45,908 nucleotides of DNA from a virus: positions 1 through 45,908 of IMG/VR virus record IMGVR_UViG_3300017643_000011; one strand, written 5' to 3'. This document shows, piece by piece, positions 4,146 through 45,908 of the stretch. A program made the translations under genes and the position numbers. How positions within the stretch are numbered: position 1 is the stretch's first letter; every line of letters starts with the position of its first letter. Under the pieces are notes generated by a model. The model had not been told where the DNA came from. It searched no databases and worked only from the letters and a program-made list of their open reading frames with translations.

Positions 4146-5840
4146 TCAGAAGGGGCGGCGCACGGCCTGCACCTTGGCCTTGCGCTTGCGCGACGCGAAC
4201 TCGGACAGCATCGACAGGGCGTCCGGCGCGTCATCGTGGCGGTTCTTGCCCTGGAGGGCGTAGCTCGTGAGCTGGGACAGGAACCGCGAGTAGTCGGACC
4301 CCGGTTTGACCTCGGACTCGTCGAGGAACAGGCAATGCTCCATAATCCAGGGGGAGGCGGCCAGTATGCGCGTCTCCTTGTTGCTGCTCGTGTACTTGGT
4401 GGTGATGGCGGTCTGGCCCTCCCGCGCGACGAGCATGTTCGACACCTCACGGGCCGTCGCGCCGCCCGCCGAGTTGCTCTCGAACCTGGCCTGCTGCACG
4501 CCGTTGCGCATGAGGCACTGGACCAGCCTCTCGCGCACCAGCTCGGGGGCCGCATCGTCACACACCACATCGCCTATGTACCAGTCCTGGCCGTACACGT
4601 AGGCCACGGGCATCACGCAGAAGTCGATGCCCCGGTCCTTGGTGTCTGCCACGGCCACCACCGCGTCGGGTGGGTCGGAGGGCATGGACAGGAACCGCCT
4701 CAACTGGTCGGGCGGGAAGAGCTGTCCCTGACGGACGTACGGCGCACCCTCGTACTTGGCGCACCACGTCGCATCATCGGTCATCCTCTTCATATCAATA
4801 TAGTAACTTGTCGAGAACCCCAGCCCGTACTGGTACTCGAAGTTGCTCTCACCCGTCGACGGGTCGAGCGCGGGTATCACCAGCTCGCGGTAGCCCGGCT
4901 CCCCACGGTGCATGTCGAGCATCCGTCCCTCGGGGTCGGCCACGTCCCAGCGGGTGCCGACCATGAGTATCTTGGTCCCGTCCTTGCGGCGGTCGTAGGC
5001 CTGGTTGACGAACGCGCCCCACTTCCGGTCGAGGCGGGCGGGACTCATGGCCTCCTCCAGGTCCTCCACGAGGTCATCGGCATAGAGCCAGCCGTGCTCG
5101 CCGACCTCGACCGCGCCCGTGAGCGTGCCCTCGATGGAACGACACGTGAGGGTGGGGAACCGCCGCCTCGCGCGAAGGGCTATCGCCTCGTCCTCCGAGG
5201 AGTCCCACACGTAGGGCGACTCGGGGAATATCTCGTGGTAGTTGTACCGCTCCTCGGTCATCATCGACTTCGACTCGCCGTAGAAGCCCTTGGTGAGCTT
5301 GTCGGAGTGGCCCGTCATGAGGTTGGCGTCGAGCGGGTGGCGGCCCATGTGCCAGTTGAGGCCCATGATGCAGGTGGTCGACTTGCCGACGCGGGGCGGG
5401 CAGGACACTATGAGCATCCGCTCGTTGGGGTCGTCCTCCAGCCGCTGTATCCCCTGGCAGAGCGGCATGAGCTGGCGTCGCCTCGGCAGCCAGAACCGCT
5501 GCTCGGGGGGACGGTCGAACTCCATGGCCTGCATGTAAGCGTCGAAGTCGTCGTGGGCGTCGACGATGAGCTGCCCGCGCAGCAGGTCGCCGAGCCGCTG
5601 CACGACCCCCGCGTCGCGGGTACCCGTTATGCCCCGTCCCAGGAGCCTGCGCAGCTCGGCCCCCGCCGCACGGTCGGTGCGCCCACGGGCGTCCCTCACC
5701 GACCTGAGCCATGAGCATGCGTCCTCCGCGACCGACACATCGCATGTGTCGTGCCCGTAGGCGTCGAGCACGCCCCTGGTCACCCTGTCCTGTTCCAGAA
5801 CATCCATGCCCCCGAGCGTCACATGGACGCCCGGGGGCAC
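4146..5840 (-). CDS. terL: terminase large subunit
   Basis: 564-aa ORF with Walker A-like 'SCPPRVGKST' in the N-terminal ATPase half, followed by a nuclease-sized C-terminal half. Sits immediately upstream of portal. Start is ambiguous (GTG 5840 or ATG 5807). Confidence 0.85.
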   Translation of the reverse strand: MPPGVHVTLGGMDVLEQDRVTRGVLDAYGHDTCDVSVAEDACSWLRSVRDARGRTDRAAGAELRRLLGRGITGTRDAGVVQRLGDLLRGQLIVDAHDDFDAYMQAMEFDRPPEQRFWLPRRRQLMPLCQGIQRLEDDPNERMLIVSCPPRVGKSTTCIMGLNWHMGRHPLDANLMTGHSDKLTKGFYGESKSMMTEERYNYHEIFPESPYVWDSSEDEAIALRARRRFPTLTCRSIEGTLTGAVEVGEHGWLYADDLVEDLEEAMSPARLDRKWGAFVNQAYDRRKDGTKILMVGTRWDVADPEGRMLDMHRGEPGYRELVIPALDPSTGESNFEYQYGLGFSTSYYIDMKRMTDDATWCAKYEGAPYVRQGQLFPPDQLRRFLSMPSDPPDAVVAVADTKDRGIDFCVMPVAYVYGQDWYIGDVVCDDAAPELVRERLVQCLMRNGVQQARFESNSAGGATAREVSNMLVAREGQTAITTKYTSSNKETRILAASPWIMEHCLFLDESEVKPGSDYSRFLSQLTSYALQGKNRHDDAPDALSMLSEFASRKRKAKVQAVRRPF

Positions 5841-6553: not shown

Positions 6554-7177
6554 CTACAAGGAAGCGGGCCGGTCGGGTTCCACTTCCCGTCCCCAGGCCT
6601 CGGCGGGCACCGCCTTGTGTCGGTACCACGTGCTCCTGCCTATCCCCATGTCCGCGCACGCCTGCGCCACCGTCTCCTCCCCCCTGCCTATCCTGTCCTC
6701 GTGCCACGCCCTCGGGTGTCCATGGGACGTCGCCCTCGGCCTGCCCTCGCGCCAACCCGGGCGCTCCCGCGCCCTGCGCTTGCCCTCGGAGGTCCTCTCG
6801 GCGATCATGTCGCGCTCGAACTCGGCCACGGCGAGCATCACGTTGCGCAGCAGCCTCGACGCGGGGTCGCCCGCGAGCGTGCCCACGTTGAGCACCGTCA
6901 CCCTCACCCCGCGCCCGTCCATCTCGTCAAGCAGCGTGAGGCCGTCCGACAGCGAGCGCGCGAAGCGGTCCATCTTGGTCACCACCAGCTCGTCTCCCGA
7001 CGTGAGGCGTGCCATGAGGGCGTCGAGCGCGGGCCTGTGCTCCGAATGGCCGGTAAACGCCTCCCGCACGACCTCGGTGCACCCCTGCTCGCGCAAGGTG
7101 GCCTCCTGGGTGTCGAGAGACGTGCCGTCCGCCGCCTGCCCACGAGAACTGACACGGGCGTAGCCGTAACGGGTCAT
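6554..7177 (-). CDS. small serine recombinase (resolvase/invertase family)
   Basis: 'YGYARVSSRGQ' catalytic-Ser motif, 'VVTKMDRFARS', and a C-terminal HTH 'GIGRSTWYRH'. About 207 aa. ATGA overlap with the upstream ORF. Confidence 0.85.
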   Translation of the reverse strand: MTRYGYARVSSRGQAADGTSLDTQEATLREQGCTEVVREAFTGHSEHRPALDALMARLTSGDELVVTKMDRFARSLSDGLTLLDEMDGRGVRVTVLNVGTLAGDPASRLLRNVMLAVAEFERDMIAERTSEGKRRARERPGWREGRPRATSHGHPRAWHEDRIGRGEETVAQACADMGIGRSTWYRHKAVPAEAWGREVEPDRPASL

Positions 7178-7452
7178 CACCACACCCCCCGCTTCCGCCA
7201 ATCAATCTGCGGGTATCCCGGCGTGTCCCAGTCGGTCGTACCACGACATTTGGTCCAACCGCCGGCGGGAGTCTGGCCGCACGAGGGGCACCAGACGCGG
7301 GCCTCGGTGAGAGGGTCATCGACCCCCTCGGACGATGCAGTGAGACGGCCGCCGCACACGAGGCATGGGTGGATTCCCTCGGGATGGGCGTTGAGCCACT
7401 GGGCGTAGGTCATACGGGACGGAAGGCCACCGTCAATCAGCGTCAGCGACAT
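7177..7452 (-). CDS. zinc-ribbon protein (CxxC...CxxC), unknown function
   Basis: 'CLVCGG...WCPSCG'. Translationally coupled (ATGA) to the recombinase and overlaps the HTH gene end by 20 nt. Confidence 0.5.
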   Translation of the reverse strand: MSLTLIDGGLPSRMTYAQWLNAHPEGIHPCLVCGGRLTASSEGVDDPLTEARVWCPSCGQTPAGGWTKCRGTTDWDTPGYPQIDWRKRGVW

Positions 7453-7702
7453 CGTTCCCTGCCTCCCCGCAACCAATCGGGTCGACGCGCCTGGCCTCGG
7501 GCGGGAGCTTCGTCCCCCGAGGGACCGCCACGAGGTCGTAGCCAAGCACGTCGAGTATCTGCCATAGGGTCTTGGCGGTCATGTTGCCACGACGAAGTGC
7601 GACCGCGATGGACGGAGGCTTCACGCCGAGCCGCTCCGCCACATCCTTCTGTGAACTGCCACGTGAGGCTATCAGCTCACGAATGGCGTCCGAAATGTAC
7701 AT
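7433..7702 (-). CDS. XRE/Cro-type HTH transcriptional regulator
   Basis: 'SQKDVAERLGVKPPSIAVALRRGN' HTH. SD GAGAGGA upstream of ATG 7702 (alternative ATG at 7708). Divergent from the plus-strand operon. Confidence 0.7.
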   Translation of the reverse strand: MYISDAIRELIASRGSSQKDVAERLGVKPPSIAVALRRGNMTAKTLWQILDVLGYDLVAVPRGTKLPPEARRVDPIGCGEAGNDVADAD

Positions 7703-7741
7703 ACGCATGTCCTCTCTGTGATTACATCGGCGTTTACGTTT

Positions 7742-8045
7742 GTCTAACACAATAATGCATAGTCATACGTCTAACAAGTCCTTTTTAGATTTTTTTCTCC
7801 TCGCGGTACTCAACAGGCGGATTCTACCTAGGATCAATCCCTGCCCGGTACCCTTGCCATAACGTTATTGCTGGTACACGTGTAGTGCGTCTCGTTACAC
7901 GCCTATGCATCTATTGCGTAGCTCAAAACTGTTGAGTATAGAGACACTCATATTGGTTAGACGTTCGTTTATGTAGATAATGTGAACCACTGGACACAAA
8001 TTAGACGCTTGCTTAATCTATAGTCATGTTAAACGAACGTCTAAC
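7742..8045. promoter_or_regulatory. divergent promoter/operator region with five ACGTCTAAC-type sites
   Basis: GTCTAAC at 7742 and 7767-7775. Exact 15-bp inverted pair GTTAGACGTTCGTTT (7956-7970) and AAACGAACGTCTAAC (8031-8045). TTAGACG at 8001. The surrounding sequence is AT-rich. Confidence 0.55.
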
Positions 8046-8058
8046 GAACGGAGTCACG

Positions 8059-8397
8059 ATGCATACAGTCCAAGCTTACATAGGCCACAACGTGCACGAC
8101 GTACCGACTCTCTCAACGCGCGAGGTATGCGACGCGGTAGAGAAGGGACTGAACGCCCGGCCTATCCTCGCGCCGGCCTACACGACCCAGGACGCGCGGG
8201 GCATGTGGCAGGGCGTGGCCGAGGACACGACGATCGTGACGCTTGCACTACTTGAGACACGCGACACACTGAACGCGGCCCTCGACCTCGTGCAAGACGT
8301 GTGCGACGCGTGCGAGCAAGACGCGGTGCTGGTAGTGGTAGACGGCTCCTCACAGCTCATAGAGGCCACACGCAAGCCCATGAAGAAAGCACTCTAG
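8059..8397 (+). CDS. hypothetical protein (island 2, gene 1)
   Basis: ATG 8059 preceded by GGAG. The upstream ATG at 8026 lies inside an operator repeat. No family recognised. Confidence 0.55.
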   Translation: MHTVQAYIGHNVHDVPTLSTREVCDAVEKGLNARPILAPAYTTQDARGMWQGVAEDTTIVTLALLETRDTLNAALDLVQDVCDACEQDAVLVVVDGSSQLIEATRKPMKKAL

Positions 8398-8412
8398 AGA
8401 GAGAAGGACATC

Positions 8413-8805
8413 ATGTACGACTATGAAGCAAGCCGCCCGTACTGTAGCGAACAATTGACCGGACGCGCCGCAACCCGATTCTATCGCGCAACAAGTGCTT
8501 ACGACCTTGCCACGAGGATCAAGGAAACGCCGCTGGAGTCCGACGTAAGAGCCGCGCGCGACTTGCTTGACCGTGTGACGCGCTACGCGCTTGCAGAAGG
8601 CCGTGCGTGCGAGGTCGACAACGACTCTAGCCGATACGACGAAGCACGAAGCAAGCACACGGAAGACCTGCTAGCAAAACGCCGCGCGCGTCTTGTGGCA
8701 GAACTCACGGCGTACGGCGCAACGCTGGAAGACTACGGAGTCTATCCGTCAGTGATTGACGCCACGACGCATCAAGACTTGTATGCCATTCATTTCTACG
8801 ATTGA
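8413..8805 (+). CDS. hypothetical protein (island 2, gene 2)
   Basis: 130-aa ORF with SD GAGAGAAGGA upstream. No family recognised. Confidence 0.6.
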   Translation: MYDYEASRPYCSEQLTGRAATRFYRATSAYDLATRIKETPLESDVRAARDLLDRVTRYALAEGRACEVDNDSSRYDEARSKHTEDLLAKRRARLVAELTAYGATLEDYGVYPSVIDATTHQDLYAIHFYD

Positions 8806-8900
8806 TGCATTGTAGACGACTATGGAAGTTACGTTATTGATAGTTGGCTATCTATTGGGCGGATTGGGCATGTGGTGGAGCCTCAAGGGAGAGAAATAAG

Positions 8901-9578
8901 ATGTTCGATATCAACGCATCAAGTTTCAAGCCGATTAAGTCTGTGGCCGGACTTTGTAGTTGCGAGAACCGTCCGATATACGACACGATCGCGCTTCTCG
9001 TGCGCGACGGTTCGGCCATGTGGTGGGGCGGTAGTCCCTACATACAGGCGCGCGCCATTCTCACCGGCAAGCTGAAAGACGAACCGGACACGTTTCACAG
9101 GTACGACGCCAACACACTATTGTCAGTACTCAAGCCAAAGTCGCACATGACAATCACGGACGCCGGGGACATCGAGATTCGTACCGGCGCTAGCGTCGTG
9201 ACTATCCCCGACACGGCCACCACCGGAACAACGGGCCACGACTACCGGACCACTGACAAGGCCCTTGAGTTCTGGGGAACGAGTCGCGAGATTGACGGTG
9301 TGCCCGCCTATGACCCGAAGATTCTCGCCAAGGTCATGAAAGCACTCACTAGTGCCGGCGTGACGCGCACGTCGATTGATCTGATACATTCCCCAGCGCA
9401 CGTGTACGGAGAAGCGTATCGCGTGGGCGCGCGCTTGCAGATTCTCATGATGCCATGCCAAGCGCTTCCACTGACATATGAGGCCATGGGCCGCCTCATG
9501 TGCGACATCAAGGGCGACAGCAAGGGCATCACCGACTACGTGACGCGAGAGGATGATACGAAAAATGATAATTTCTGA
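8901..9578 (+). CDS. hypothetical protein, possibly sliding-clamp-like fold (island 2, gene 3)
   Basis: ATG 8901 after AAGGGAGAG. The sequence pattern (N-terminal 'F.I....F...I..V', 'RPIYDTIALLV', C-terminal 'LQILMMP') loosely recalls DnaN-type beta-clamp domains. Recall by eye only. Confidence 0.55.
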   Translation: MFDINASSFKPIKSVAGLCSCENRPIYDTIALLVRDGSAMWWGGSPYIQARAILTGKLKDEPDTFHRYDANTLLSVLKPKSHMTITDAGDIEIRTGASVVTIPDTATTGTTGHDYRTTDKALEFWGTSREIDGVPAYDPKILAKVMKALTSAGVTRTSIDLIHSPAHVYGEAYRVGARLQILMMPCQALPLTYEAMGRLMCDIKGDSKGITDYVTREDDTKNDNF

Positions 9579-9897
9579 CCCGTGGGGCATAGGCCGGACG
9601 CTTGAGGACAAAGAGACGGAAATCAAGGACCTAACCACGTACGACCTCGCACGTAAGTGTGGGCTACCGGACGACGCCGCCCGGTTCGTGGACGAATGGC
9701 TACCGGAGTATCGCGCGACTCTGACTTTGTACCTCGCCTATTGGCCCTACTCGTGGCTTACGATCGCAGTCATGGATGATAAAGAGTTGAACGATTGGCT
9801 TGCATGCTATCCAATTACGCGCGAAAAGTTCGAGGAAGAGCGCGGATCGATCTACGAGGACGCGAGCTTTATAGGCCATTTGGTGATAGGGAAATGA
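9553..9897 (+). CDS. hypothetical protein (island 2, gene 4)
   Basis: 114-aa ORF overlapping the previous gene by 26 nt. Alternative ATG at 9565. Confidence 0.5.
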   Translation: MIRKMIISDPWGIGRTLEDKETEIKDLTTYDLARKCGLPDDAARFVDEWLPEYRATLTLYLAYWPYSWLTIAVMDDKELNDWLACYPITREKFEEERGSIYEDASFIGHLVIGK

Positions 9898-9898
9898 C

Positions 9899-10237
9899 AT
9901 GAGAAGCGACTGGTACGAGGGATTTTCGATTGTTGACCCGGACAACGGGGAACAGGTAAGCATGTACAGGGTCTACGAGCGCGACGAACCTATTGGCATC
10001 CGACGCCACGGACACACAAAATGGTATCGCACAACGTATTCCAGAAAGTCACTTATCAAGGTGAACAAGACGTGCATATCGACCTGCTCACAATCCGAAT
10101 TATTTGAGTTTCTTTCCGACCTATGCACACCACGTGGCGCGTTCCGGTTCATCCGCGCGATATGCGAGCACACAAAGCCCACGCGTTGCCCGATCCTACC
10201 CGAATACCTTACAAACTACCCCGAACTTGGAGAATAA
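9899..10237 (+). CDS. hypothetical protein (island 2, gene 5)
   Basis: 112-aa ORF starting 1 nt after the previous stop. Confidence 0.55.
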   Translation: MRSDWYEGFSIVDPDNGEQVSMYRVYERDEPIGIRRHGHTKWYRTTYSRKSLIKVNKTCISTCSQSELFEFLSDLCTPRGAFRFIRAICEHTKPTRCPILPEYLTNYPELGE

Positions 10238-10238
10238 G

Positions 10239-10457
10239 ATGTCTAAGAACGTAATGTCTCCCGACAAGCTACCCGCCTATTTCAATAGCACCGACGGCTG
10301 GTACAAGGACAAGCGCGCCTACGCCTACACGCTCTGTGACCGACTCACCGACGCACAGAAGACGAAACTGCTCGAGAACGAGGACGTACGTCTCATAACC
10401 TGCCACCATCGCTACGCGCCGGAACTGGTATATGATGTCGTTGTCGTTCTCCATTAA
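10239..10457 (+). CDS. hypothetical protein (island 2, gene 6)
   Basis: ATG 10239 after GGAGAATAAG, 1 nt after the previous stop. 72 aa. Confidence 0.55.
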   Translation: MSKNVMSPDKLPAYFNSTDGWYKDKRAYAYTLCDRLTDAQKTKLLENEDVRLITCHHRYAPELVYDVVVVLH

Positions 10458-10826: not shown

Positions 10827-10862
10827 GAAAAAGCCCCTCGCGACCATGAGGCCACGAGGGGC
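10827..10862 (-). terminator. rho-independent terminator directly after terS
   Basis: Minus strand reads GCCCCTCG-(14 nt)-CGAGGGGC followed by TTTTTC, beginning 10 nt after the terS stop. Confidence 0.55.
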
Positions 10863-10872
10863 GAGGGCTACG

Positions 10873-11922
10873 CTAGCGGGCCTTGCGCGGTCCCGTCTTG
10901 AGGGCGGGCACGCCCTTGTTCGTCATGCGCACGGTACCGTCTGGTAGCACGTGCGGCTCGTGGCCCATGAGGGCCTCAAGGTCCGCCAACTGCGAGGGCG
11001 TGGCGGCGCGTCCCGCGTCCGGGAGTATGCGCGCCACGGCCGCACGGACGGCCGCGTTGGCGGCGCGCTCCCGGTTGGTCCACGACATCGCCGCCCATTC
11101 CTCGGTCGGGACGTCCAGGGGGCGGCCCGTCCTCGCGTCTATCCCGAAGCGTTCCGCGTATTCGCCGGCCGTTCCCACCGTCTTCCGGTGGGATCGCCGC
11201 GTATTCGCCGGCTTTCGGGCGGTATTCGCCGGCTTCCGGGCGGTATTCGCCGGGTCTTTTCCGGTATTCGCCGGATATTCGCCGGGCTTTTCCCCACGTT
11301 CGCCCGTATTTGCCAGGCCCGGGGCGGTATTCGCCGGCATCGGGGCCTCGTATTCGCCGGCCTCGTATTCGCCGGCCTCCTCGGCGGGGACCTCCACGCG
11401 GACGTCCTCGGCAGGGAGGGCCGACGCGTACCTCGCCATGATCTGCGCGGGCGAGCGGGACTCGGACCCCTGTATCTGCACGTTGATGTTCTCGGTCGTG
11501 TCCTTGTAGCCGAAGTTGTTCTTGCCTAGGAATATGCCCGTGACCGGGTTGCGGAACTCGTCGTTGGCGAAGGCGTACTCCCAGTAGGTTGACATAAGAT
11601 TGAGTGCGTTTTTGATGATAAGGCTGGACTCGGGCGTAAGCTGGGCGGCCCATGTGCCCGTGTTGTCCCCGTTGGTCCAGCGCATGAGGCCGTCCCTCGT
11701 CGTGTTCAGCGCCATGCAGAACCCGCTCAGCAGCGGCTTGCTCCCGTGCCTCTCGCACAGGTCGAGGTACCAGTCTATCCTCTCCCGCACCGCGTCGGCG
11801 TCACCCAGATCGACCCTCCTCAACCCCAACAGCTCTCGGCCCATCTGGATGCACTCGCTGTTCTGCTCCCTGCTCATGGCCCTCGCGTTCGGCGGGTTCC
11901 CCTTCAGACTCCTCTCGCCCAT
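10873..11922 (-). CDS. terS: terminase small subunit with long repeat-containing C-terminal extension
   Basis: The N-terminal 170 aa show TerS (Terminase_2-type) features: 'KPLLSGFCMALNTTRDGLMRW' HTH and 'GIFLGKNNFGYKDTTE'. The C-terminal part contains the GEY/PANT repeats. Confidence 0.8.
   Translation of the reverse strand: MGERSLKGNPPNARAMSREQNSECIQMGRELLGLRRVDLGDADAVRERIDWYLDLCERHGSKPLLSGFCMALNTTRDGLMRWTNGDNTGTWAAQLTPESSLIIKNALNLMSTYWEYAFANDEFRNPVTGIFLGKNNFGYKDTTENINVQIQGSESRSPAQIMARYASALPAEDVRVEVPAEEAGEYEAGEYEAPMPANTAPGLANTGERGEKPGEYPANTGKDPANTARKPANTARKPANTRRSHRKTVGTAGEYAERFGIDARTGRPLDVPTEEWAAMSWTNRERAANAAVRAAVARILPDAGRAATPSQLADLEALMGHEPHVLPDGTVRMTNKGVPALKTGPRKAR
11169..11386. repeat. 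array of about 10 copies of GTATTCGCCGG inside terS, mostly 21-bp phased
   Basis: Copies start at 11169, 11212, 11233, 11254, 11275, 11287 (variant), 11317 (variant), 11338, 11361 and 11376. Confidence 0.9.
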
Positions 11923-19509: not shown

Positions 19510-20558
19510 TACTGGTTGTCCTCTCGGTTGGAAGTGGTGAGTCGGATGGACTCGCTCGTCTTGCAGAACTCCTGGTAGGTCCTGGGGTCGGCCTTCTTGA
19601 AGGCTGTGCCGTCGAACCTCGTGCTCTCTGTGCGGGAGAGCCTCCACACGAGTGTCTCCCCCGCGTACTCGGCCTTGGTATCACCCTCACCCATGCTCTC
19701 GGCGAGGGCGGTCTTGATGGCGTCCTTGAGGCCCGCGAGCCGCTCCTCCTTGGGGGCAAGCTCGGCCCCGAGGGCCTCGGCCTCGGCAACGAGTCCGGCT
19801 ATCCCCGTGTCGGCGGACGGGATGGCCGTGCGGAGGGCGTCGAGGTACTCCTTGTCGGTGCGCTCGTCGTAGTCGGGTGATTTGCCCGCCATGACGTGCT
19901 CGAACCACCAATCGCGTACCTGACCCATCCATATCTCGAAGTCCGGATACCTCTCGGCCATGGAGAACTCGACGGTGATGGTGTTGTCGCTTGAAATCGC
20001 CACGTCGGCCGGGTGCTCGTAGTCCTCGTCCTTGAGGAACGTGCAGACCATCACCACGTCATCGACGTGGAGGAGCGCGGCGTAGAGCGCGGCCTGCTCG
20101 GCGTAGTACTCGGGAACGCCGTCCTCCCAGTCCTCGGCGCGCTTCGTGGTCTTGCACTCGATGACCGTCTGGGGCACCCTGTCCTCGTCCACCACGAGGT
20201 AGTCCCACATGCCCCCGAAGATCGCATCGTCGGGGAAGAAGTCCCACCCGGCGTTGCGCGCCGGGTCGGGGCCGCCGTAGACGTCCTCGGGACGCAGGAG
20301 CGAGGACCCCAGGCCCATCGTCCCCTGCAACCAGTCGGCCTGGTGAGGCTCGATGGCCCGTCCCGCGACCGTGTAGATGGTGTCCTCGAATGGCGGCTTG
20401 TAGGTCCTCGTGACCTCGCACCACGCCTGGAAGGGGCTGCTCCAGCGGTTCAGGCCCCGCACCGCGGCGAACCGTGTGCCCGTGAGCTTGAGGGGTCGCC
20501 TCGGCTGCGCGACCTCGAGGTGCCGGTCGACCCATTTTCCCTTTGGCATACTACGCAT
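19509..20558 (-). CDS. YqaJ/lambda-Exo-like PD-(D/E)XK recombination exonuclease
   Basis: 'MWDYLVVDE...VIECKTTK' catalytic pattern. Adjacent to the Erf domain. Confidence 0.75.
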   Translation of the reverse strand: MRSMPKGKWVDRHLEVAQPRRPLKLTGTRFAAVRGLNRWSSPFQAWCEVTRTYKPPFEDTIYTVAGRAIEPHQADWLQGTMGLGSSLLRPEDVYGGPDPARNAGWDFFPDDAIFGGMWDYLVVDEDRVPQTVIECKTTKRAEDWEDGVPEYYAEQAALYAALLHVDDVVMVCTFLKDEDYEHPADVAISSDNTITVEFSMAERYPDFEIWMGQVRDWWFEHVMAGKSPDYDERTDKEYLDALRTAIPSADTGIAGLVAEAEALGAELAPKEERLAGLKDAIKTALAESMGEGDTKAEYAGETLVWRLSRTESTRFDGTAFKKADPRTYQEFCKTSESIRLTTSNREDNQ

Positions 20559-21414
20559 CCATCCTCTCGGTGACGGCCGCGATAAGCGTCTCGACGGTCT
20601 TGGTCGTGCCCGTGGTGAACTTCTCGGTCTTGTCCATGCAGAGCTTGGCGAGCTTGGTGGCCTTCTCGTCGTCGGGCTTGGCCTTGTGGAGCGCGGCCAC
20701 GTTCCTCTTGAGGCTGTTCAGGAGGAGCTTCGGGGCGGCGTTCCCCTCCGTCTGGGCGTCGGCGCTCGCCTTACGCTCGGTGGGCGTCGCGGGGGCCTTG
20801 TGGGACCTCTGGGCCGCGACGGGTGCCGCGACCGCCTTGGCGGGCGTCTCGCCCGTGCCCTGCCCCGCCTTCGGGTTGCCGATGTTGGAATCGATGGCGT
20901 CGGCCTCCACGAGGTCGAGGGCGATCATCCAGAAGTAGCGACGGTAGTAGGTGATGCTCGACCCCGCCGCCTGGCAGGGGTTCGTGGCGTTCTTGCCCGC
21001 GTTCGAGACGATGACGTCCATCGGGTCGTACGCCCCTTGGAACGCGATCCTCTCGGACGGCTCGTCCGCGTTCACGACCTCGAAGCCGTAGTTCTTCGGG
21101 GATTCCTTCGAGTAGGTGTATCCGAGGTTGGTGACGACCAGCACGAGGCCGAGGTCCTGGAACGTCTCCTCGGCCACGGGAACGATGTCCTCGAGCGAGT
21201 AGTAGGTGAACTCCAGGAACATGTTCTTGCCCGTCTTCTTGATGCCCTTGTGGAGCACCGTCGTTCGTGCGAGGGCGAGCTTCTGGTACACGTTGAGGTC
21301 ATGGGGGTTGGTGACGGCCTCGGTCTCGACCTTCTTGGTCGCTGTTCGCTTGCGTGGGGCGGTCTTGGGGGCCGTCTCGTTCTCTGTGGTTTCATTCTTG
21401 ATTGTCTCGGTCAT
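20551..21414 (-). CDS. possible independently translated Erf-family annealase (internal start)
   Basis: In-frame ATG at 21414 preceded by GAAGGAGAAGGAC (strong SD), exactly at the polymerase/Erf boundary. Confidence 0.4.
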   Translation of the reverse strand: MTETIKNETTENETAPKTAPRKRTATKKVETEAVTNPHDLNVYQKLALARTTVLHKGIKKTGKNMFLEFTYYSLEDIVPVAEETFQDLGLVLVVTNLGYTYSKESPKNYGFEVVNADEPSERIAFQGAYDPMDVIVSNAGKNATNPCQAAGSSITYYRRYFWMIALDLVEADAIDSNIGNPKAGQGTGETPAKAVAAPVAAQRSHKAPATPTERKASADAQTEGNAAPKLLLNSLKRNVAALHKAKPDDEKATKLAKLCMDKTEKFTTGTTKTVETLIAAVTERMDA

Positions 21415-23250
21415 GTCCTTCTCCTTCGCTGGCAGAAACTCGGCCACCCGTCTTTCGGCGAGTGCCACGTACCATGCCTTGTCGATGTCTTTGATGTCGG
21501 GGTTCTTCTCGTTGGCTACGAGACAGTGCTCGGGGAGGCTCGCTATCTTGGCGACTCCGCCCGTCTCGGCCTTGACCTTGTAGAGCGTGCCGAGGCCGTC
21601 ATACGTGGTGGCGAACACCCGGTTGCACTGTTGTCTGTCAACCTCGTCGTACACGTCCCGTCCCACCAGCTGGTAGACGCGGCTGTACTTGTGCGAGGCC
21701 TTGGCCGTGATCTGGTAGTCGGTGGGGTCGTCGTCCGCCGCCACGGTCTCGGAGGGCGGCGTCCCGTCGAGGATGGCGTGATGTATCGCCTCGGCGACCA
21801 CCCTGGCGTCGTTGGAGACGCCCCAGCCCCCGCCGCTCTTGACGCCACGAGCGAGGGTGCCGCCCTTGGTCTTGTCATGACCGTCGGTGAAGCGGGCGGC
21901 GTAGTTGTTCACGTCGCGCTGGGCCACCTTGGACAAATCGTCGCGTTCGAGCACGAGACCCGTCGCGTCCATCCACTCGCGGATGATGTCGTTCGTGGCC
22001 TCGGCGTCGGTCTTGGCTACGCGGAACATGATGCCGTCCGTGTTGAGCTGGATCAATTCGAGGCTCGGGGTGTCTCGCACCAGTCGGCAGGCGAGTCCCA
22101 GCATCACGACCTGGCCGCTCACGCACACCGAGCGGGCCATGCGAGGGTCGTACAACTTCGAGAACCTCTGGCGCATGACGCCGTATGTCGTGTTGAGCAC
22201 CAGCTTGAGGGCGTCGCTCAGGGCCTTGTCACCCGTGCGCTTGGCTTCGAGCCTTGCGTGGTAGGTGTCCTCGTAGCGTTTTGGTTCGGGGCAGTGACGG
22301 CTCATGAGGCCGTACCCGATGATCAGGGACGGGTACAGGCTTGCCACGTCCCAGTTGGCTATCACGTGCTCCGAGTCTGTCTCCCACATGGACCTCGGCA
22401 CCGCGCCGTGGATTCCCCCGAACGCAAGGGTCACAGGACAGCCGCCCACGTTCAGGTCGAGACTTGACGAGAACAGCTCGTCGTATGCCACGTTCGGGTC
22501 CTTGCCACGTCCGAAGAACGCCGCAGCAGCATCAGGTATCGGGAACGAGTCGAGCAGGGGCCACGTGTAGTCGCGTTCGTCGGCCTCTCGCTCCTCCGTC
22601 GTGCCCTCCGCGTCGGCGCGCAGGTACTCGGCGGTGAGCCTCCCGTTGGTCATGCCCAGGGCCTTCCACCCCTCCAGCCCCGCCATCGTGCCCAGCCGCG
22701 TCTTGGTCTCCAGGTAGTCCTTGCGCAGCACCGCGAGCCTGGCCGTGGACTCCACGTCATAGGCGCAGTAGCGCAGGACCTCCGCCATCTCGGCGTCCGT
22801 GAGGGCGCGGTCGATGTCGAACGGCACCGTGGACTCCCGGATGGGCCAGCCCATCTGCGACTCCACCGACTTGAGGCTCGTGCCCATCATGGTGTCGTCC
22901 ATGAGGTCGGTGTCGGGGTACCAGTACCTCTGGCCCCCGAACCCGGGCCAGTCCCAGTAGTTGTTCCCGTCCTTGATGATGAAGTCGTTCAGGTCGTGGG
23001 CCTCCTCGGGCGACGCCCCGAGGCAGAGGGCCGAGACGATGCCCCGGTCGTAGTGCTTGGAGTTGAACCCTGCTAGTGTATGGTCCTGTTTGATGACTCC
23101 CATGAAGTCGAGTAGGTCTTGGTTCTGGCCCGTCTGGAAGCCCCACGTGCGAGGCTCGCCCTCGGGTGGTGCGACCTCCCGGAAGCACACGCACCAGTCG
23201 TGCCGAAAGCACTCGCAGTCGTAGGCGACGAGGCCCCCTAGTCCTCCCAT
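20551..23250 (-). CDS. family B DNA polymerase fused in frame to an Erf-family single-strand annealing protein
   Basis: Exo motifs 'AYDCE', 'NSKHYD', 'YCAYDVEST'. Pol motifs A 'DVASLYPSLI', B 'KLVLNTTYG', C 'QLNTDGIMF'. The C-terminal ~290 aa show an Erf signature ('LNVYQKL...FTYYSLEDIVP...QAAGSSITYYRRY'). No stop codon separates the two parts. Confidence 0.8.
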   Translation of the reverse strand: MGGLGGLVAYDCECFRHDWCVCFREVAPPEGEPRTWGFQTGQNQDLLDFMGVIKQDHTLAGFNSKHYDRGIVSALCLGASPEEAHDLNDFIIKDGNNYWDWPGFGGQRYWYPDTDLMDDTMMGTSLKSVESQMGWPIRESTVPFDIDRALTDAEMAEVLRYCAYDVESTARLAVLRKDYLETKTRLGTMAGLEGWKALGMTNGRLTAEYLRADAEGTTEEREADERDYTWPLLDSFPIPDAAAAFFGRGKDPNVAYDELFSSSLDLNVGGCPVTLAFGGIHGAVPRSMWETDSEHVIANWDVASLYPSLIIGYGLMSRHCPEPKRYEDTYHARLEAKRTGDKALSDALKLVLNTTYGVMRQRFSKLYDPRMARSVCVSGQVVMLGLACRLVRDTPSLELIQLNTDGIMFRVAKTDAEATNDIIREWMDATGLVLERDDLSKVAQRDVNNYAARFTDGHDKTKGGTLARGVKSGGGWGVSNDARVVAEAIHHAILDGTPPSETVAADDDPTDYQITAKASHKYSRVYQLVGRDVYDEVDRQQCNRVFATTYDGLGTLYKVKAETGGVAKIASLPEHCLVANEKNPDIKDIDKAWYVALAERRVAEFLPAKEKDMTETIKNETTENETAPKTAPRKRTATKKVETEAVTNPHDLNVYQKLALARTTVLHKGIKKTGKNMFLEFTYYSLEDIVPVAEETFQDLGLVLVVTNLGYTYSKESPKNYGFEVVNADEPSERIAFQGAYDPMDVIVSNAGKNATNPCQAAGSSITYYRRYFWMIALDLVEADAIDSNIGNPKAGQGTGETPAKAVAAPVAAQRSHKAPATPTERKASADAQTEGNAAPKLLLNSLKRNVAALHKAKPDDEKATKLAKLCMDKTEKFTTGTTKTVETLIAAVTERMDA

Positions 23251-23459
23251 AGGACCGCCGCCCCGCAGCACTCGCCGCCGAGTTCCGTGAGGCCCATCGT
23301 GGCACCGAAGGCACCGTCGCACATCCCGAGGTCGGAGACTATCGTCCGGGCGGCGTCGGCCCCCACGTGGTCCGCCAGAAGGCGCTCGTCCTCGGTGCCG
23401 AACGGCACGCAGTGGTTGCAGTCCCCGCAGCAGCCAGGCTGCCGCTTCATACGTCTCAT
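23238..23459 (-). CDS. Cys-rich small protein
   Basis: ATGA overlap with the SNF2 stop. 'CCGDCNHC...C...CC'. 73 aa. Confidence 0.5.
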   Translation of the reverse strand: MRRMKRQPGCCGDCNHCVPFGTEDERLLADHVGADAARTIVSDLGMCDGAFGATMGLTELGGECCGAAVLWED

Positions 23460-26170: not shown

Positions 26171-26304
26171 GCGGGGCGTTCGAGTATGTGCGTGGGCTGT
26201 CCATGTATAGAACACTAGTTCTAATGCCGGACAGAAATGTTTCAGACAGGGGAAGTCTCGGTCAGCGGTATAAGACTCCTCGCGATGCACGCATCTGAGA
26301 TTTT

Positions 26305-26337
26305 TGCTGCCAAATCTGCTGCCAAGTTGCTGCCAAA
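26305..26337 (+). repeat. three direct TGCTGCCAA(A) repeats (candidate integrase arm-type sites, arm 1)
   Basis: Copies at 26305, 26317 and 26328. The same 9-mer is repeated three times at 26533-26565. Confidence 0.7.
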
Positions 26338-26532: not shown

Positions 26533-26565
26533 TGCTGCCAAATCTGCTGCCAAATCTGCTGCCAA
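26533..26565 (+). repeat. three direct TGCTGCCAA(A) repeats (arm 2), abutting the int ribosome-binding site
   Basis: Copies at 26533, 26545 and 26557 with 12-bp spacing. The int ATG is at 26586. Confidence 0.7.
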
Positions 26566-26585
26566 AAAAGGAGGACATATAAAAT

Positions 26586-27689
26586 ATGGAACTCGGTGGG
26601 GACTATCTCAGAAAGCGTGGCGACAAATGGCAACTGTGCATAAGATATCGAATCGATGACAATGACACGTGGCACATCAAGACGCACACGAGTGCGGCCA
26701 CCACGAAGCGTGACGCGAAGGCAGACATGCGCCAATGGCGAGACACGCTTGAAGGGCAAATCATCGCCGGTGATACCGCCGCCTACATCGCCGACTACGT
26801 GGATCGCTATGTGGACATGCTGGAGTCGGCCCATACCATCCGTCCGAACACGGTGGAGGGCTACCGATATGCGGCACTGCACATTCGCAAGGCTTTCGCC
26901 ACGACCCCACTGGACCGTCTGACAGCTCAGAAAGTGCAGAAGTGGGAAGCGTCCATGCTCTCCACCGGAAAATCCGTGGAGACCGTCACGAAGACCCACA
27001 GACTACTCAAGGCCGCCCTCGCGTATGCCGTGGAGGTGGACGACATCACCAAGAACCCCGTAGCTGCCGTGAAGCCACCGAAGATGCCGGCAAGACACCC
27101 GAACGCCCTCGATGCAGCAACGCGCAAGCGTCTCATGGAATCCCTCGACATGATGGGAGACTCCCCCGTCACGATGGCCGCGTGGATCGCCATGTGCGGC
27201 GGGCTTCGCGAGGGCGAGATATGTGGCCTCCGATGGGATGACGTGGACATGCGGGACGGCACGATGTGGGTCCGACGCGCGATAGCCCATACCAAAGCCG
27301 GAATGTACGTCAAGGAACCCAAGTCAGGACATGCACGAGACGTACCCATCACCGACACGCTCATGCGTCACCTCAAGGCGTGGCATGAGTACAGCACGTC
27401 CATCTACGTCATAGGCAAGGGCAAGGACTACCACAACCCGGCCATGCTCGGCAAGGAGTGGCGCACGATCTCGCGGGCACTCAACCTCGTCGGCACCGAA
27501 GGCCGGACCTGCACCTTCCATGACCTGCGCCACACCTTCGCCACCGCCGCCATAGCAGCGGGAGTGGACGTCAAGACGGTCTCGAGCATCCTGGGACACG
27601 CCAACGCCGCCATGACGCTCAACGTCTACGCGTCGGCCGACCCAGACGCGAAGAGGCGAGCGGCGAGTGTCATCGACGCCGCCATATGA
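26586..27689 (+). CDS. int: tyrosine integrase
   Basis: 'GLREGEICGLRW' (Arg), 'FHDLRHTFAT' (H-x-x-R), 'LGHANAAMTLNVYAS' (His...Tyr). SD AGGAGG. Confidence 0.9.
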   Translation: MELGGDYLRKRGDKWQLCIRYRIDDNDTWHIKTHTSAATTKRDAKADMRQWRDTLEGQIIAGDTAAYIADYVDRYVDMLESAHTIRPNTVEGYRYAALHIRKAFATTPLDRLTAQKVQKWEASMLSTGKSVETVTKTHRLLKAALAYAVEVDDITKNPVAAVKPPKMPARHPNALDAATRKRLMESLDMMGDSPVTMAAWIAMCGGLREGEICGLRWDDVDMRDGTMWVRRAIAHTKAGMYVKEPKSGHARDVPITDTLMRHLKAWHEYSTSIYVIGKGKDYHNPAMLGKEWRTISRALNLVGTEGRTCTFHDLRHTFATAAIAAGVDVKTVSSILGHANAAMTLNVYASADPDAKRRAASVIDAAI

Positions 27690-27927: not shown

Positions 27928-28875
27928 ATGAATAGATATGACAAGCTATACATAATCGGCAATGGACTCGATTTGCATTGTGGTATGCCGACCAAATACA
28001 GTGATTTCAGGGAGTATATGTTTGATACCCTCGACAAAACATATGGATACGACGGTTTCGGGCAGTTCATAGATAGGTATCCTAATCTTTGCCCCGATTG
28101 GCATAATTTCGAAGATGCGTTGGGACAGATTACCTGTCAGCCTATCAGTGATAGTTTTGAGGAATATCACGATATGTATGAAGCTGAAGTCGATCCAATG
28201 GATGACCCCGACTATGCAGTAGTAAATGCGTCAGAAAACACAGAAGAGGAGGTCAGCTCCTTCGACGAAGAGTCACTTAGAAAATACCTGCGGGAATGGG
28301 TTAGGAGTATTCCATTACCATCAGGTTTGTCCTTCGAGACACTTGGCATCATCGATACAGAAGGCACGCTATATATTAGCTTTAATTATACAAAAACTCT
28401 TGAGCAGGCGGGTGTCGATTCATCTCGAATCTGCCATATCCACGGTGCAATTTCAGATGAAAGTAATGATCTTGTCATAGGTCACGCCGCCCCAACTGGC
28501 AACATTAAAAAGTCAATCGATGACGCTGACACGAAATACTGTCCTTCCATTGAAGACAGACAACAGGATTTCTTTCCACATGGTGCATTCGACAAGGCAA
28601 ACCGCATTGTCGATGCAACCGAGAAACAAACGTTTGATCTCATCGCCGCGCACAAGGACTTTTTTGAACTCATCTCGGGTGTCAAGACAATCGAGACTCT
28701 TGGCTTTGGCTTTGGCGAGGCAGATATGCCGTACATCGAGAAAATCGCTTCCATTGCTTCAAAATCTGTCTCGTGGGAAATACGCTGTCATGACACAACC
28801 GCACGTGACGAGGCACAAAAGATGCTACAGAAGCATTCTCTCGAGTTATCCGCACACATTAGCGAGAGTTACTAG
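27928..28875 (+). CDS. AbiH-family abortive-infection protein
   Basis: 'KLYIIGNGLDLHCGMPTKYSDF', 'ISFNYTKTLE', 'ICHIHG', 'LVIGH', 'LGFGFGEADMPYI' follow the AbiH family pattern. AT-rich codon usage. Confidence 0.75.
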   Translation: MNRYDKLYIIGNGLDLHCGMPTKYSDFREYMFDTLDKTYGYDGFGQFIDRYPNLCPDWHNFEDALGQITCQPISDSFEEYHDMYEAEVDPMDDPDYAVVNASENTEEEVSSFDEESLRKYLREWVRSIPLPSGLSFETLGIIDTEGTLYISFNYTKTLEQAGVDSSRICHIHGAISDESNDLVIGHAAPTGNIKKSIDDADTKYCPSIEDRQQDFFPHGAFDKANRIVDATEKQTFDLIAAHKDFFELISGVKTIETLGFGFGEADMPYIEKIASIASKSVSWEIRCHDTTARDEAQKMLQKHSLELSAHISESY

Positions 28876-34132: not shown

Positions 34133-35449
34133 CTATACCTCGTGTGCTATCCAGTTGGGCTTGGCAAAGTTGCCGAGCGTGTTATGGTCGCCATCGACGG
34201 TCAGCGTATAGGAGAAGGTGTAAGAAGTACCGGCCCTTGCCCCAGAAACCACGAGCCGAGCGTTCAGCAACCTCCCGACAGTATCGCCACCGAGCAACGC
34301 TCCGGTATAGTAGGCTACCTTGGTGAGTCCGGCCGGGGCGTTGATACTGAGATGCGTCAGGTTTCCAGCCCAACCCCACGTGGAATCAAACGCCAAGCAC
34401 ACGTCAAGGGTGCAATCCCGGGGAGGCACGATGGTGATGGTACTGTTGCCATGCGCTTCATGCCAGCGGTCTGCGGAAGAGATATATGCAGTATCCGCGG
34501 CACCAAGAGCCTGTCTGGCCGCGCTCGCCGTCGCTCCTCCGGTTCCTCCTTGCGTGATTGGCAGTGTTCCGCTCGTGATGTCAGCGGCGCTATGTTGGTG
34601 GAGGAGCGGGGCGAACGCGCCCTTGAGCTTCGACCAGAGGTACGTGAGGCCCGTGGCGTTGAGGTACTTCGTCCCCGCCACCTGGCCGTTGGCGCACACC
34701 GAGTCGATGTCCGCGGTCGGGATGCCGACGGGCGTGGGGGCGGCGGGGCCGAACTCCTCCCATGCGCTGCCGATGTAGGCCCACTCGTTGTACTTGTTGT
34801 CCCCCGTACCCGACGTGTCGGGGGTGAGGTAGAGCACGCCCGGCGTTCCCGTGACGGTCGGCTCGCCCGTCGAGGCGTTGTACTGCCCGCTCGAGAGCAC
34901 CGTGAACTTGAGGTTCTGGGCCGCGTCCATCATCTGGGTGAACTCGGACGCCCTTGAGCTTTCGGCACCCACACGGGCCGTCTCGGCGCTCGCGCGGGAG
35001 GTCTCCGCCGAGGCACGGGCCGTCTCGGCGGTCTTCCGCGCCGACTCGGCCGTGACACGAGCGGTCTCGGTGCTCACACGAGAGGACTCCGCGCTCTTGC
35101 GGGCCGTCTCCGCCGTGACGCGCGCGCCCTCGGCGCTCGCACGGGAGGTCTCGGACGTCTTTCGCGCCGTCTCGTCGGTCACACGAGAGGCCTCCACCGA
35201 CGCACGGGAGGTCTCGGCCGTGGCACGTGCCGTCTCCGCGTTCTCGCGGGCCGTTTCGTTGGCGGTCACGCTGGCCTCGAAGTGGTCCTGGTAGCCCTTG
35301 AAGAAGGCCGCGTTGAGCTTCGTCCCCGCGGTCCCGTCCCCCGGTTGGCGGGTCATGTCGTAGACCCCGTGCGGGGCGTCCACCGCGGTGAGCTTGATTC
35401 GGTTGGGATAGGGGTAGGCCTCGTCTACGTAGGTGGGTGTGTCAGCCAT
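34133..35449 (-). CDS. tail fibre / receptor-binding protein with about 15 heptad repeats
   Basis: 438 aa. Residues 63-168 are repeats of [AT]E[TS][AS]Rxx. Last structural gene before lysis. Confidence 0.7.
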   Translation of the reverse strand: MADTPTYVDEAYPYPNRIKLTAVDAPHGVYDMTRQPGDGTAGTKLNAAFFKGYQDHFEASVTANETARENAETARATAETSRASVEASRVTDETARKTSETSRASAEGARVTAETARKSAESSRVSTETARVTAESARKTAETARASAETSRASAETARVGAESSRASEFTQMMDAAQNLKFTVLSSGQYNASTGEPTVTGTPGVLYLTPDTSGTGDNKYNEWAYIGSAWEEFGPAAPTPVGIPTADIDSVCANGQVAGTKYLNATGLTYLWSKLKGAFAPLLHQHSAADITSGTLPITQGGTGGATASAARQALGAADTAYISSADRWHEAHGNSTITIVPPRDCTLDVCLAFDSTWGWAGNLTHLSINAPAGLTKVAYYTGALLGGDTVGRLLNARLVVSGARAGTSYTFSYTLTVDGDHNTLGNFAKPNWIAHEV

Positions 35450-45443: not shown

Positions 45444-45908
45444 CGCCTGACCTCCCGTGCGACCGTCTCGGATAGCTGGCTGCGCATGAGCTGGCTCGCC
45501 TTGTACATGAATCCGCGCCCGTTCTGTCCTGTGGTCGTTCGCCAATCACCCGCCATGAGGGAGAAGAAGGGCCAGCCGTTCGCCCAGTCCTGGTGTCCCA
45601 GCGTTCTCGGACCGACCCCGAGCCTCGCGGCGTCGGGTCCGGCGTTCCCGAGTCCGGTGCCGAACTCCACGAACGCAGCCTCCCGCGAAGCGGCCACCAC
45701 GGCGGCGCCCCTCGCGGTCGGCACGGCGCGGATGGACGAACGAAGGCCACCGATGCCCACGGGGACCGTCTCTCGCGCATCCTCGGCGCCTGCCTTGGCG
45801 ACCTCCAAAGCCGCTTGTCTGGTCGCAGCACCCACGTGGAGGGCGTACTCGTTCAGTTGGTCTTGCAGACCCGCGAGGGAATCGGTTGATAGTTTGATAG
45901 TAAAGGTA
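45440..45908 (-). CDS. HK97 gp10-family head-tail joining protein (5' end continues across the circular junction; ATG at 130-132)
   Basis: 'REAAFVEFGTG' gp10-type motif. The reading frame runs through the window end, and the duplicated copy at 1-132 supplies 'MPTFTIKLSTDSLAGLQDQLNEYALHVGAATRQ'. Confidence 0.6.
   Translation of the reverse strand, partial: TFTIKLSTDSLAGLQDQLNEYALHVGAATRQAALEVAKAGAEDARETVPVGIGGLRSSIRAVPTARGAAVVAASREAAFVEFGTGLGNAGPDAARLGVGPRTLGHQDWANGWPFFSLMAGDWRTTTGQNGRGFMYKASQLMRSQLSETVAREVRR

Follow-up and report, generated by a model that had tools for sequence, protein, structure and literature searches.

An 11-bp word recurs ten times within a 349-codon reading frame

The IMG/VR virus record IMGVR_UViG_3300017643_000011 was analysed over its full length of 45,908 nucleotides, which is referred to here as the window. 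On its minus strand lies an open reading frame (ORF) of 349 codons, the first part of which resembles a small terminase subunit (TerS), and within this ORF a short DNA word is repeated in a compact array that is the subject of this report. The coordinates of the ORF, of its parts and of the neighbouring features are given in Table 1.

The word reads GTATTCGCCGG on the plus strand and CCGGCGAATAC on the coding (minus) strand. It is present in eight exact copies, starting at positions 11158, 11201, 11222, 11243, 11264, 11327, 11350 and 11365, and in two degenerate ones at 11275 (one mismatch) and 11306 (two mismatches), giving a total of 10 copies of the 11-mer in 218 bp (11158-11375). An array of this kind had been described in the initial annotation of the region, and both its existence and the copy spacings reported there, including the successive 21-bp steps, proved correct; however, every coordinate had been given as the true value plus 11, including the overall span of 11169-11386. 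From start to start the copies are 43, 21, 21, 21, 11, 31, 21, 23 and 15 bp apart, and parts of the array are tandem duplications, with 21-bp units of 84% identity and 15-bp units of 100% identity. No exact copy of GTATTCGCCGG was found outside the array on either strand of the window, where 0.033 would be expected from base composition, and matches with up to two mismatches occur outside the array at chance level.

It can be seen that one DNA word is translated in two reading frames, as had been noticed at the outset: CCGGCGAATAC is in codon phase 0 in six copies, which encode P-A-N-T, and in phase 1 in four copies, which encode G-E-Y. When the 10 copies are aligned, the columns of the 11-mer carry 1.5-2 bits and the 12-nt flanks 0.03-1.1 bits. 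The copy starts are phased at 10.5 bp, with a resultant of 0.74 that is reached by 0.17% of random placements. A second, independent assembly from another sample (L001) encodes a protein 98% identical to that of the window, and its array has the same structure minus one 15-bp unit, with the copy that matches 11275 being perfect there. As this array is near-identical and has one 15-bp unit fewer, we conclude that the array structure is real and that its copy number is polymorphic.

The array encodes a predicted linker to an orphan domain

The 349-codon ORF comprises a small-terminase-like core, the linker encoded by the array and a C-terminal domain (Table 1). In an AlphaFold2 model the predicted local distance difference test score (pLDDT) for linker residues 179-250 is 31-36, so that they are predicted to be disordered, in agreement with the earlier proposal that the array sits inside a disordered TerS linker. 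Residues 251-343 are predicted to be folded (pLDDT 83-90), and the domain folded alone scored 77 overall. The GC content at the three codon positions is 0.53/0.46/0.91 in the core, 0.67/0.59/0.73 in the linker and 0.74/0.60/0.90 in the C-terminal part; the flat profile is limited to the array segment, and both flanks, in the same frame, have a third-position GC content (GC3) of 0.90-0.91. The codon-position GC of the core and of the C-terminal part is like that of the phage's confident genes, which speaks for real translation of the whole 349-residue ORF.

The C-terminal domain is an orphan, L001 being the sole relative found. For these approximately 100 residues no other relative was detected by tblastn in the loci of the homologues, by a word-indexed search of 5.8 billion proteins or by an exhaustive phmmer search of 1.84 billion representatives, in which the match to P0014 was a spurious repeat match. 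Likewise, Foldseek returned no fold match to the domain in the PDB.

The core resembles the P22 gp3 small terminases

The window protein matches Pfam family PF16677 (GP3_package) with 21.8-24 bits (expectation value, E, 2e-4 to 4.5e-5), for which the curated cut-off is 29.4 bits. As 33 of the 35 aligned relatives match GP3_package at E <= 0.01, with a best E of 6.3e-15, the identification of the ORF as terS in the initial annotation holds at the level of the family, that of the P22 gp3 small terminases. In the AlphaFold2 model of the core, residues 20-120 have a pLDDT of 84-95, and residues 124-156 score low as a monomer. The best Foldseek match in the PDB is 3p9a, the P22 gp3 nonamer (E 1.1, probability 0.77, TM score 0.49); the TerS-like protein 2ao9 is also in the Foldseek list and was the sole match of a profile search against PDB sequences (E 0.055). 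Among 50,697 deposited phage records the terS-like protein has one weak match only, to an unannotated record.

The window was found to hold no other TerS candidate. An ORF of 210 codons directly upstream of terL (Table 1) was considered as the true TerS and rejected, as it encodes a lipobox signal peptide, matches no family and is present in the window and L001 only.

Relatives carry arrays at the terS stop codon

L001 apart, the homologues found are approximately 180-230 residues long and end within about 15 residues of the start of the window's array. We scanned the sequence around the stop codon of the terS-like gene in 80 viral loci and in loci fetched by exact protein; the 52 prophage loci, from bacterial genomes, were not deduplicated against the viral loci and may overlap with them. 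Most relatives carry a same-strand, head-to-tail array with the core CGACT(T/A)T (CGACTWT) that begins at or just after the stop codon. Such an array was seen in approximately 37 of 51 non-redundant viral loci, and 37 of the 52 prophage loci have at least three copies. In the first 100 bp past the stop codon the 51 viral loci contain 143 forward matches to CGACTWT (2.8 per locus), compared with 0 to 0.2 per locus in background bins and almost none on the reverse strand, and for the 52 prophage loci the same 100 bp gave 148 forward matches and 0 reverse ones. The association also holds in the opposite direction. When viral contigs were searched for (CGACTTT)3, 50 loci were returned, 46 of them with enough upstream sequence; a same-strand upstream TerS-like ORF (hidden Markov model E <= 1e-40) was present in 40 of the 46, and in 33 of those 40 its stop codon lies 0-199 bp before the array.

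The carriers of the family array comprise more than 100 gut phages and prophages, mainly of Clostridia, plus a Collinsella clade, and single array loci were also found in metagenome-assembled genomes assigned to Succinivibrionaceae, Bacteroidaceae and Sphaerochaeta. The median copy number of arrays with three or more copies is eight (range 3-15, by hand tally). The commonest spacing in the relatives is 7 bp, that is, contiguous heptamers, in runs of up to 9 (L052) and 12 (L166). The helical phasing that had been pointed out for the window therefore stands for the window but is not general, many relatives having tandem 7-bp units, and we rejected it as a rule of the family. L029, L045 and L049 have copies in the final 20-120 nt of the ORF, which are translated there as an Asp-Ser tail; since several relatives thus have copies inside the 3' end of the ORF, the window is an extreme case of a common overlap between array and reading frame.

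The window array has the same position relative to the TerS core and the same orientation as the family arrays, and its word can be placed in a series that leads from GCGACTTTCG (L002 and L012) through GCGAATTCCG (L010, 8 of 10 positions shared) to GCGAATACCG in the window, which agrees with the L010 word at 9 of 10 positions. By position, orientation and word series the window array is judged to be homologous to the family array, of which it is a diverged local form, and by the same comparisons the array is not peculiar to the window phage but is a family-wide element. The unit in L010, L012 and L026 is bipartite, with CTACAC as its second conserved half. The 11-mer of the window was found in such an arrangement nowhere else among viral and metagenome contigs, five two-copy matches being unrelated coding repeats.

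Some further arrays were noted in the course of these searches. Arrays of CGACTTT with no TerS-like ORF in the stretch available occur in L151, L159, L163, L174, L175, L176 and L187; those of L163, L175 and L187 abut the start of an opposite-strand gene, and L176 has two arrays in opposite orientations. Some relatives have a second, unrelated tandem array past the terS terminator (L077, approximately 4735-4865; L040, approximately 4690-4770; L005, 8758-8853; and L007), with the units GGTTCCGGCNNNC (10 copies, 13 bp), GGAGCTGGT (eight copies, 9 bp) and GGTACTAGTNC (eight copies, 11 bp). In L005 and L007 this unrelated second type is the sole array.

Candidate functions of the array

That conservation acts on the DNA and not on the peptide, as the initial annotation had argued, is supported by the relatives, which lack the peptide and carry the orthologous array as non-coding DNA after the stop codon. 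Conservation of a peptide in one frame, as of a protein repeat, was not seen, six copies being read as PANT and four as GEY, and selection on the peptide is excluded because the word is used in two frames and the peptide is absent from the relatives. An explanation that would need no DNA function is that replication slippage or unequal crossing-over in a low-complexity linker produced the array as a by-product, which is tolerated owing to the disorder of the linker. The array does contain the recent tandem duplications described above (21-bp units, 84%; 15-bp units, 100%), its copy number differs between the window and L001, and the same word also occurs elsewhere in unrelated genes, which encode PANT-like or GEYE-like repeats. 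We nevertheless regard a mere by-product as quite improbable: the word is conserved between variable spacers, its use in two frames excludes peptide selection, the spacings are irregular (43, 31, 23, 11) with no single slippage period, and homologous arrays, most of them beyond the ORF, stand at the same position in approximately 70% of over 100 distant relatives. The array could also act as RNA, as a repeated motif in the terS mRNA or its 3' untranslated region that is bound by a ring-shaped protein and serves translational or stability control. Its orientation relative to the gene is strictly conserved, and in the low-GC relatives it lies between the stop codon and the terminator and is therefore transcribed. 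However, in the high-GC clade nearest the window (L007, L009, L010, L014 and L026) the order is stop codon, terminator hairpin, array, and since the position of the array relative to the terminator is not conserved, a role at the level of DNA rather than RNA is indicated. In addition, no Rfam family was matched at gathering thresholds, with two sub-threshold chance matches near a terminator, and a conserved orientation is equally expected of an asymmetric DNA site in a conserved gene order; an RNA element has in our view hardly any probability.

The protein that binds the array must be conserved throughout the family, because the core word is common to phages of hosts from several phyla. The genes on both sides vary: those upstream are replication genes of different kinds (D5 primase-helicase, PrimPol/VapE, or DnaD-like plus DnaC-like) at distances of 0 to 7 kb, those downstream form cassettes on either strand, and in L005 the array is followed by convergent lysis genes. 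The terS-like gene is the one constant neighbour, and the strict head-to-tail orientation of the copies would suit a cyclic oligomer better than a two-fold symmetric dimer. We conclude that the array is very probably a cis-acting DNA element tied to the small-terminase gene. Binding by another phage protein is unlikely; this could be a regulator that acts where the early operon ends, or the conserved small serine recombinase, for which the array would be an accessory or recombination site for cassette exchange. The HTH_3 and resolvase genes are conserved 2-4.5 kb downstream in most loci, the cassette between them and the array differs in content and strand among relatives, and a few (CGACTTT)n arrays have no TerS-like gene nearby. 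As a recombinase site, however, the array would be hard to reconcile with its presence in L127, L142, L143 and L146, where no resolvase was detected within 5 kb, or with the lack of inverted repeats flanking the cassette. Resolvase and invertase sites are pairs of inverted half-sites, whereas these arrays are strictly head-to-tail and strand-specific. The convergent lysis genes that follow the array in L005 also speak against such a site, and the helix-turn-helix (HTH) protein has its own palindromic candidate operators of a different sequence. An iteron-type replication origin inside coding sequence, like lambda ori in gene O, is suggested by the 10.5/21-bp phasing of the window's direct repeats and by the position of the array at the end of the replication or early module, where in the window and L091 it immediately follows a D5-type primase-helicase gene. 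It is nonetheless improbable, as the replication genes vary in kind and distance while the CGACTWT core is constant, so that there is no conserved initiator gene; nor is there an adjacent AT-rich unwinding element (no 40-bp segment within about 600 bp has a GC content of 0.35 or below), the array does not coincide with a GC-skew extremum, and the relatives' tandem 7-bp units are not helically phased. Finally, the unbroken runs of up to 9-12 head-to-tail 7-bp units in relatives resemble the heptad parS of plasmid pSM19035 (PMC9499535), and a plasmid-type partition centromere, built from omega heptads like those of pSM19035 or from 11-bp ParR iterons, might be envisaged. Against this, the phage encodes a tyrosine integrase and a CI-like repressor, its relatives are integrated chromosomal prophages, no gene for ParA, ParM or TubZ turned up in the ORFs that were scanned, and the linkage is to terS, so that we give a partition site next to no chance.

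A possible packaging site

The reading that we favour, with slightly better than even confidence given the comparisons above, is that the array is the site where TerS assembles to start packaging, that is, a pac-type site. The word is found only in the array, and the arrays of the relatives lie at or after the terS stop codon, so that a unique site stands in or beside terS. This reading fits established knowledge, since pac is located in or beside terS in P22 and in SPP1/SF6. A TerS oligomer would assemble on the array and so start genome packaging, each head-to-tail copy being contacted by one DNA-binding domain of the cyclic oligomer; TerS rings have 8-11 subunits, and the median family array has eight copies. 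In the window lineage the ancestral terS stop codon would have been lost and the ORF extended through the whole array, which is open to it because the word has no stop codon in any of the six frames. The array would then be translated, in two frames, as a disordered linker joining the TerS core to the added orphan domain.

A number of observations weigh against a packaging site. The TerS assignment itself is one of remote homology, judging from the Pfam score (24 bits against a gathering threshold of 29.4) and the Foldseek E of about 1. The terS-like gene never adjoins terL in the family, the two being 3-5 kb apart: relatives with terL in the available stretch have it on the same strand, 2.7-4.7 kb downstream, and in the window the distance is 5 kb, with an opposite-strand cassette and the HTH, resolvase and lipoprotein genes in between. 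About a quarter of the relatives (approximately 14 of 51) have no evident array, and six or seven (CGACTTT)n loci have no TerS-like gene in the stretch available. A tandem spacing of 7 bp is unfit for one repeat per subunit if the DNA is wrapped round a ring of about 95 Å diameter. In addition, the isolated DNA-binding domain of the SF6/SPP1 TerS is not specific for the pac repeats (PMC4737164).

A more specific version of the packaging reading would be that the arrays are a sequence-specific docking track for a gp3-type TerS ring, with roughly one repeat (a 7-bp unit in most relatives, the 11-mer in the window) per subunit, and constitute a readable code whose specificity can be switched by a change in the recognition helix (Thr-Thr-Arg with altered words). 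In the window phage TerS would be translated through its own binding site, and bound TerS could then also block transcription or translation of its own C-terminal domain. We consider this proposal doubtful. In the high-GC clade, Thr stands two positions ahead of the invariant Arg of the putative recognition helix in the window, L010 and L007, the three loci whose words are altered, and the four carriers of CGACTTT have V, M, F or I there; the three Thr loci are non-monophyletic in a neighbour-joining tree, which has weak support. This co-variation of residue and word, with n = 7 and uncorrected for phylogeny or for the number of columns examined, is only a hint, and this too counts against the packaging reading. 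If the docking proposal were true, there could be feedback between assembly of the packaging complex and production of TerS isoforms.

Comparison with known systems

The closest parallel in terms of protein family is P22, the TerS of which also belongs to GP3_package and which has an asymmetric packaging signal inside the small-terminase coding sequence (the pac annotation was checked in NC_002371, positions 4-25). P22, however, has a single 22-bp site in the middle of a gene that adjoins terL, whereas the window has 10 copies (3-15 in relatives) at the 3' end of the gene or, in relatives, past its stop codon, and terL is 3-5 kb away. A resemblance to P22 pac in the word itself, CGACTTC in the reverse complement of GAAGATTTATCTGAAGTCGTTA, is a single 7-mer on the opposite strand and was treated as chance. 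The pac region of SPP1/SF6 (boxA, boxB and boxC, around the start of gene 1) similarly has direct repeats in or beside terS; these have been proposed as TerS sites, and the TerS forms a ring with peripheral HTH domains (PMC4737164). It differs in that the TerS is of another family and the repeats are few, poorly conserved and at the 5' end of the gene, whereas the word of the window family is sharply conserved, with a core common across host phyla.

Small-subunit binding sites are also present as three 16-bp R sites in cosB of the cos phage lambda, upstream of Nu1, and as 4+3 hexamers, regulated by Dam methylation, in P1 pac. Both resemble the array in having multiple copies of a short word beside the terminase cutting site, but neither is translated in two frames. 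The iterons of lambda ori lie inside gene O, the gene of their own binder, and are translated as a linker between two domains; they form a replication origin bound by an initiator, whereas the conserved partner of the window array is the small terminase. The parS sites of pSM19035 resemble the arrays of many relatives in that about 7-10 units of 7 bp follow one another without gaps (PMC9499535), but they belong to a plasmid partition and repressor system with a ribbon-helix-helix binder and ParA, and the window phage integrates.

Repeated small-subunit sites beside terminase genes, and cis sites within coding sequence, are therefore already known kinds of element. What appears to be undescribed is the presence, across a large family of uncultured gut phages, of a sharply conserved, strand-specific array in which 3-15 heptamers are anchored at the stop codon of a gp3-type terS. 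The same applies to the occasional switches of word among the arrays of the family and to the capture of a whole array by the window ORF, where two frames of one word encode the linker to an orphan domain. In the literature that could be searched, no paper contains CGACTTTCGACTTT or links a small terminase to heptamer repeats. How small terminases choose viral DNA is still unsettled, and the family offers an unusually legible candidate site, with arrays that make the stoichiometry, geometry and specificity switching of binding directly testable. In uncultured gut phages the array would also serve as a simple marker from which packaging start points, and with them hot spots of transduction, could be predicted, and the window is a clean natural case in which a cis element prevails over protein coding.

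Genome context of the array

Bases 1-127 of the window recur exactly at 45782-45908, and because its first 127 bases are repeated at its end we take the contig to be a circular assembly with a unit of approximately 45,781 bp (about 45.78 kb). A circular contig is compatible with headful packaging but not diagnostic of it. The phage is temperate, with genes for a tyrosine integrase, a CI-like repressor and AbiH on the plus strand at 25.9-28.9 kb; its other products include recombination proteins of the YqaJ and ERF types, an SNF2 helicase and primases. On the minus strand lie the structural genes, which encode TerL, an SPP1-type portal, a scaffold protein and the major capsid protein. Collinsella prophages encode the proteins closest to the terS-like one (42-45% identity), which suggests that the host is a member of the Coriobacteriia, probably Collinsella. 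Relatives in bacterial genomes include Collinsella aerofaciens 1001262st2 (L100), C. ureilytica AGMB00827 (L095) and Catenibacterium mitsuokai DSM 15897 (L127), the last on a 44-kb contig with about 2480x coverage.

Table 1. Features of the array region and of the adjacent part of the window
Feature	Coordinates	Strand	Remarks
TerL gene	4146..5840	minus	5 kb downstream of the array ORF
Lipoprotein ORF, 210 residues	5878..6510	minus	LGGCAS lipobox; among all loci fetched, in the window and L001 only
Small serine recombinase (resolvase/invertase) gene	6554..7201	minus	
HTH_3 regulator gene	7433..7750	minus	Own palindromic candidate operators at 7758-8048
Intrinsic terminator	10833..10862	minus	Strong; 13-bp stem then T run, directly 3' of the stop of the 349-residue ORF
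ORF of 349 residues: small-terminase-like core, array-encoded linker, orphan C-terminal domain	10873..11922	minus	
C-terminal domain, residues 251-349	10876..11172	minus	GC3 0.90; AlphaFold2 pLDDT 83-90
Array-encoded linker, residues 181-250, predicted disordered	11173..11382	minus	Codon-position GC flat (0.67/0.59/0.73); AlphaFold2 pLDDT 31-36
Array, 10 copies of CCGGCGAATAC	11158..11375	minus	Codons 183-255 of the 349-residue ORF
Perfect 15-bp tandem duplication, 2.4 units	11344..11379	minus	Inside the array; one unit absent in L001
P22 gp3 / Pfam GP3_package core, residues 1-180	11383..11922	minus	Homologues of about 200 residues stop within about 15 residues of its end

The nearest characterised relatives of the window TerL, at 24-26% identity, are those of the Lactococcus phages TP901-1, Tuc2009, ul36 and P335 and of the 987 group of Streptococcus thermophilus phages. 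TP901-1 and Tuc2009, of the lactococcal P335 group, are pac-type (headful) phages, but an identity of 24-26% in TerL is too low for the packaging mode to be transferred. The TerL of the cultured Eggerthella phage EL753P1 is 34% identical to that of the window; the layout of the window is not visible in the annotation of EL753P1, which was all that was consulted, and in which the genes before the terL homologue are hypothetical apart from nrdD.

The HTH_3 and serine recombinase genes lie just upstream of terL in most of the relatives that are readable there (including L002, L008, L010, L091, L092 and L095-L146). In the window the tyrosine integrase is present besides the small serine recombinase. 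A palindromic motif, TTAGACGTTCGTTTA, occurs three times (7758-7775, 7953-7971 and 8030-8048) in the divergent region between the HTH gene and the plus-strand cassette, and these copies are probably operators of the HTH protein. The cassette itself (8026-10457, plus strand) has a lower GC content of approximately 55% and consists of small ORFs that run counter to the operons on either side; a weak SAM-lyase-like match (E 0.002) was found for the first of these ORFs (8026..8397). Since its content and strand differ among relatives, the cassette is a possible accessory or anti-defence hotspot. An invertible segment under resolvase control was also considered and was rejected, as the cassette is not flanked by inverted repeats.

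Elsewhere in the window, a 923-codon ORF (20551-23322, minus strand) has an ERF single-strand-annealing domain at residues 679-818 only, and its first 680 or so residues match no family. The AbiH abortive-infection gene (27928-28875, plus strand; E 3e-43) adjoins the integrase gene and lies in an island of 44-46% GC. Two short tandem arrays of TTGCTGCCAAA / TGCTGCCAAATC, at 26304-26337 and 26533-26566, shortly precede the integrase gene (26586..27689) and may be arm-type sites of the integrase or sites for a repressor. A tandem repeat with periods of 21, 42 and 63 bp (approximately 14 units of 21 bp) at 34971-35258 lies inside an ORF (34133..35449) with a C-terminal MSP1 jelly-roll domain and probably encodes a repeated stalk of a tail or receptor-binding protein.

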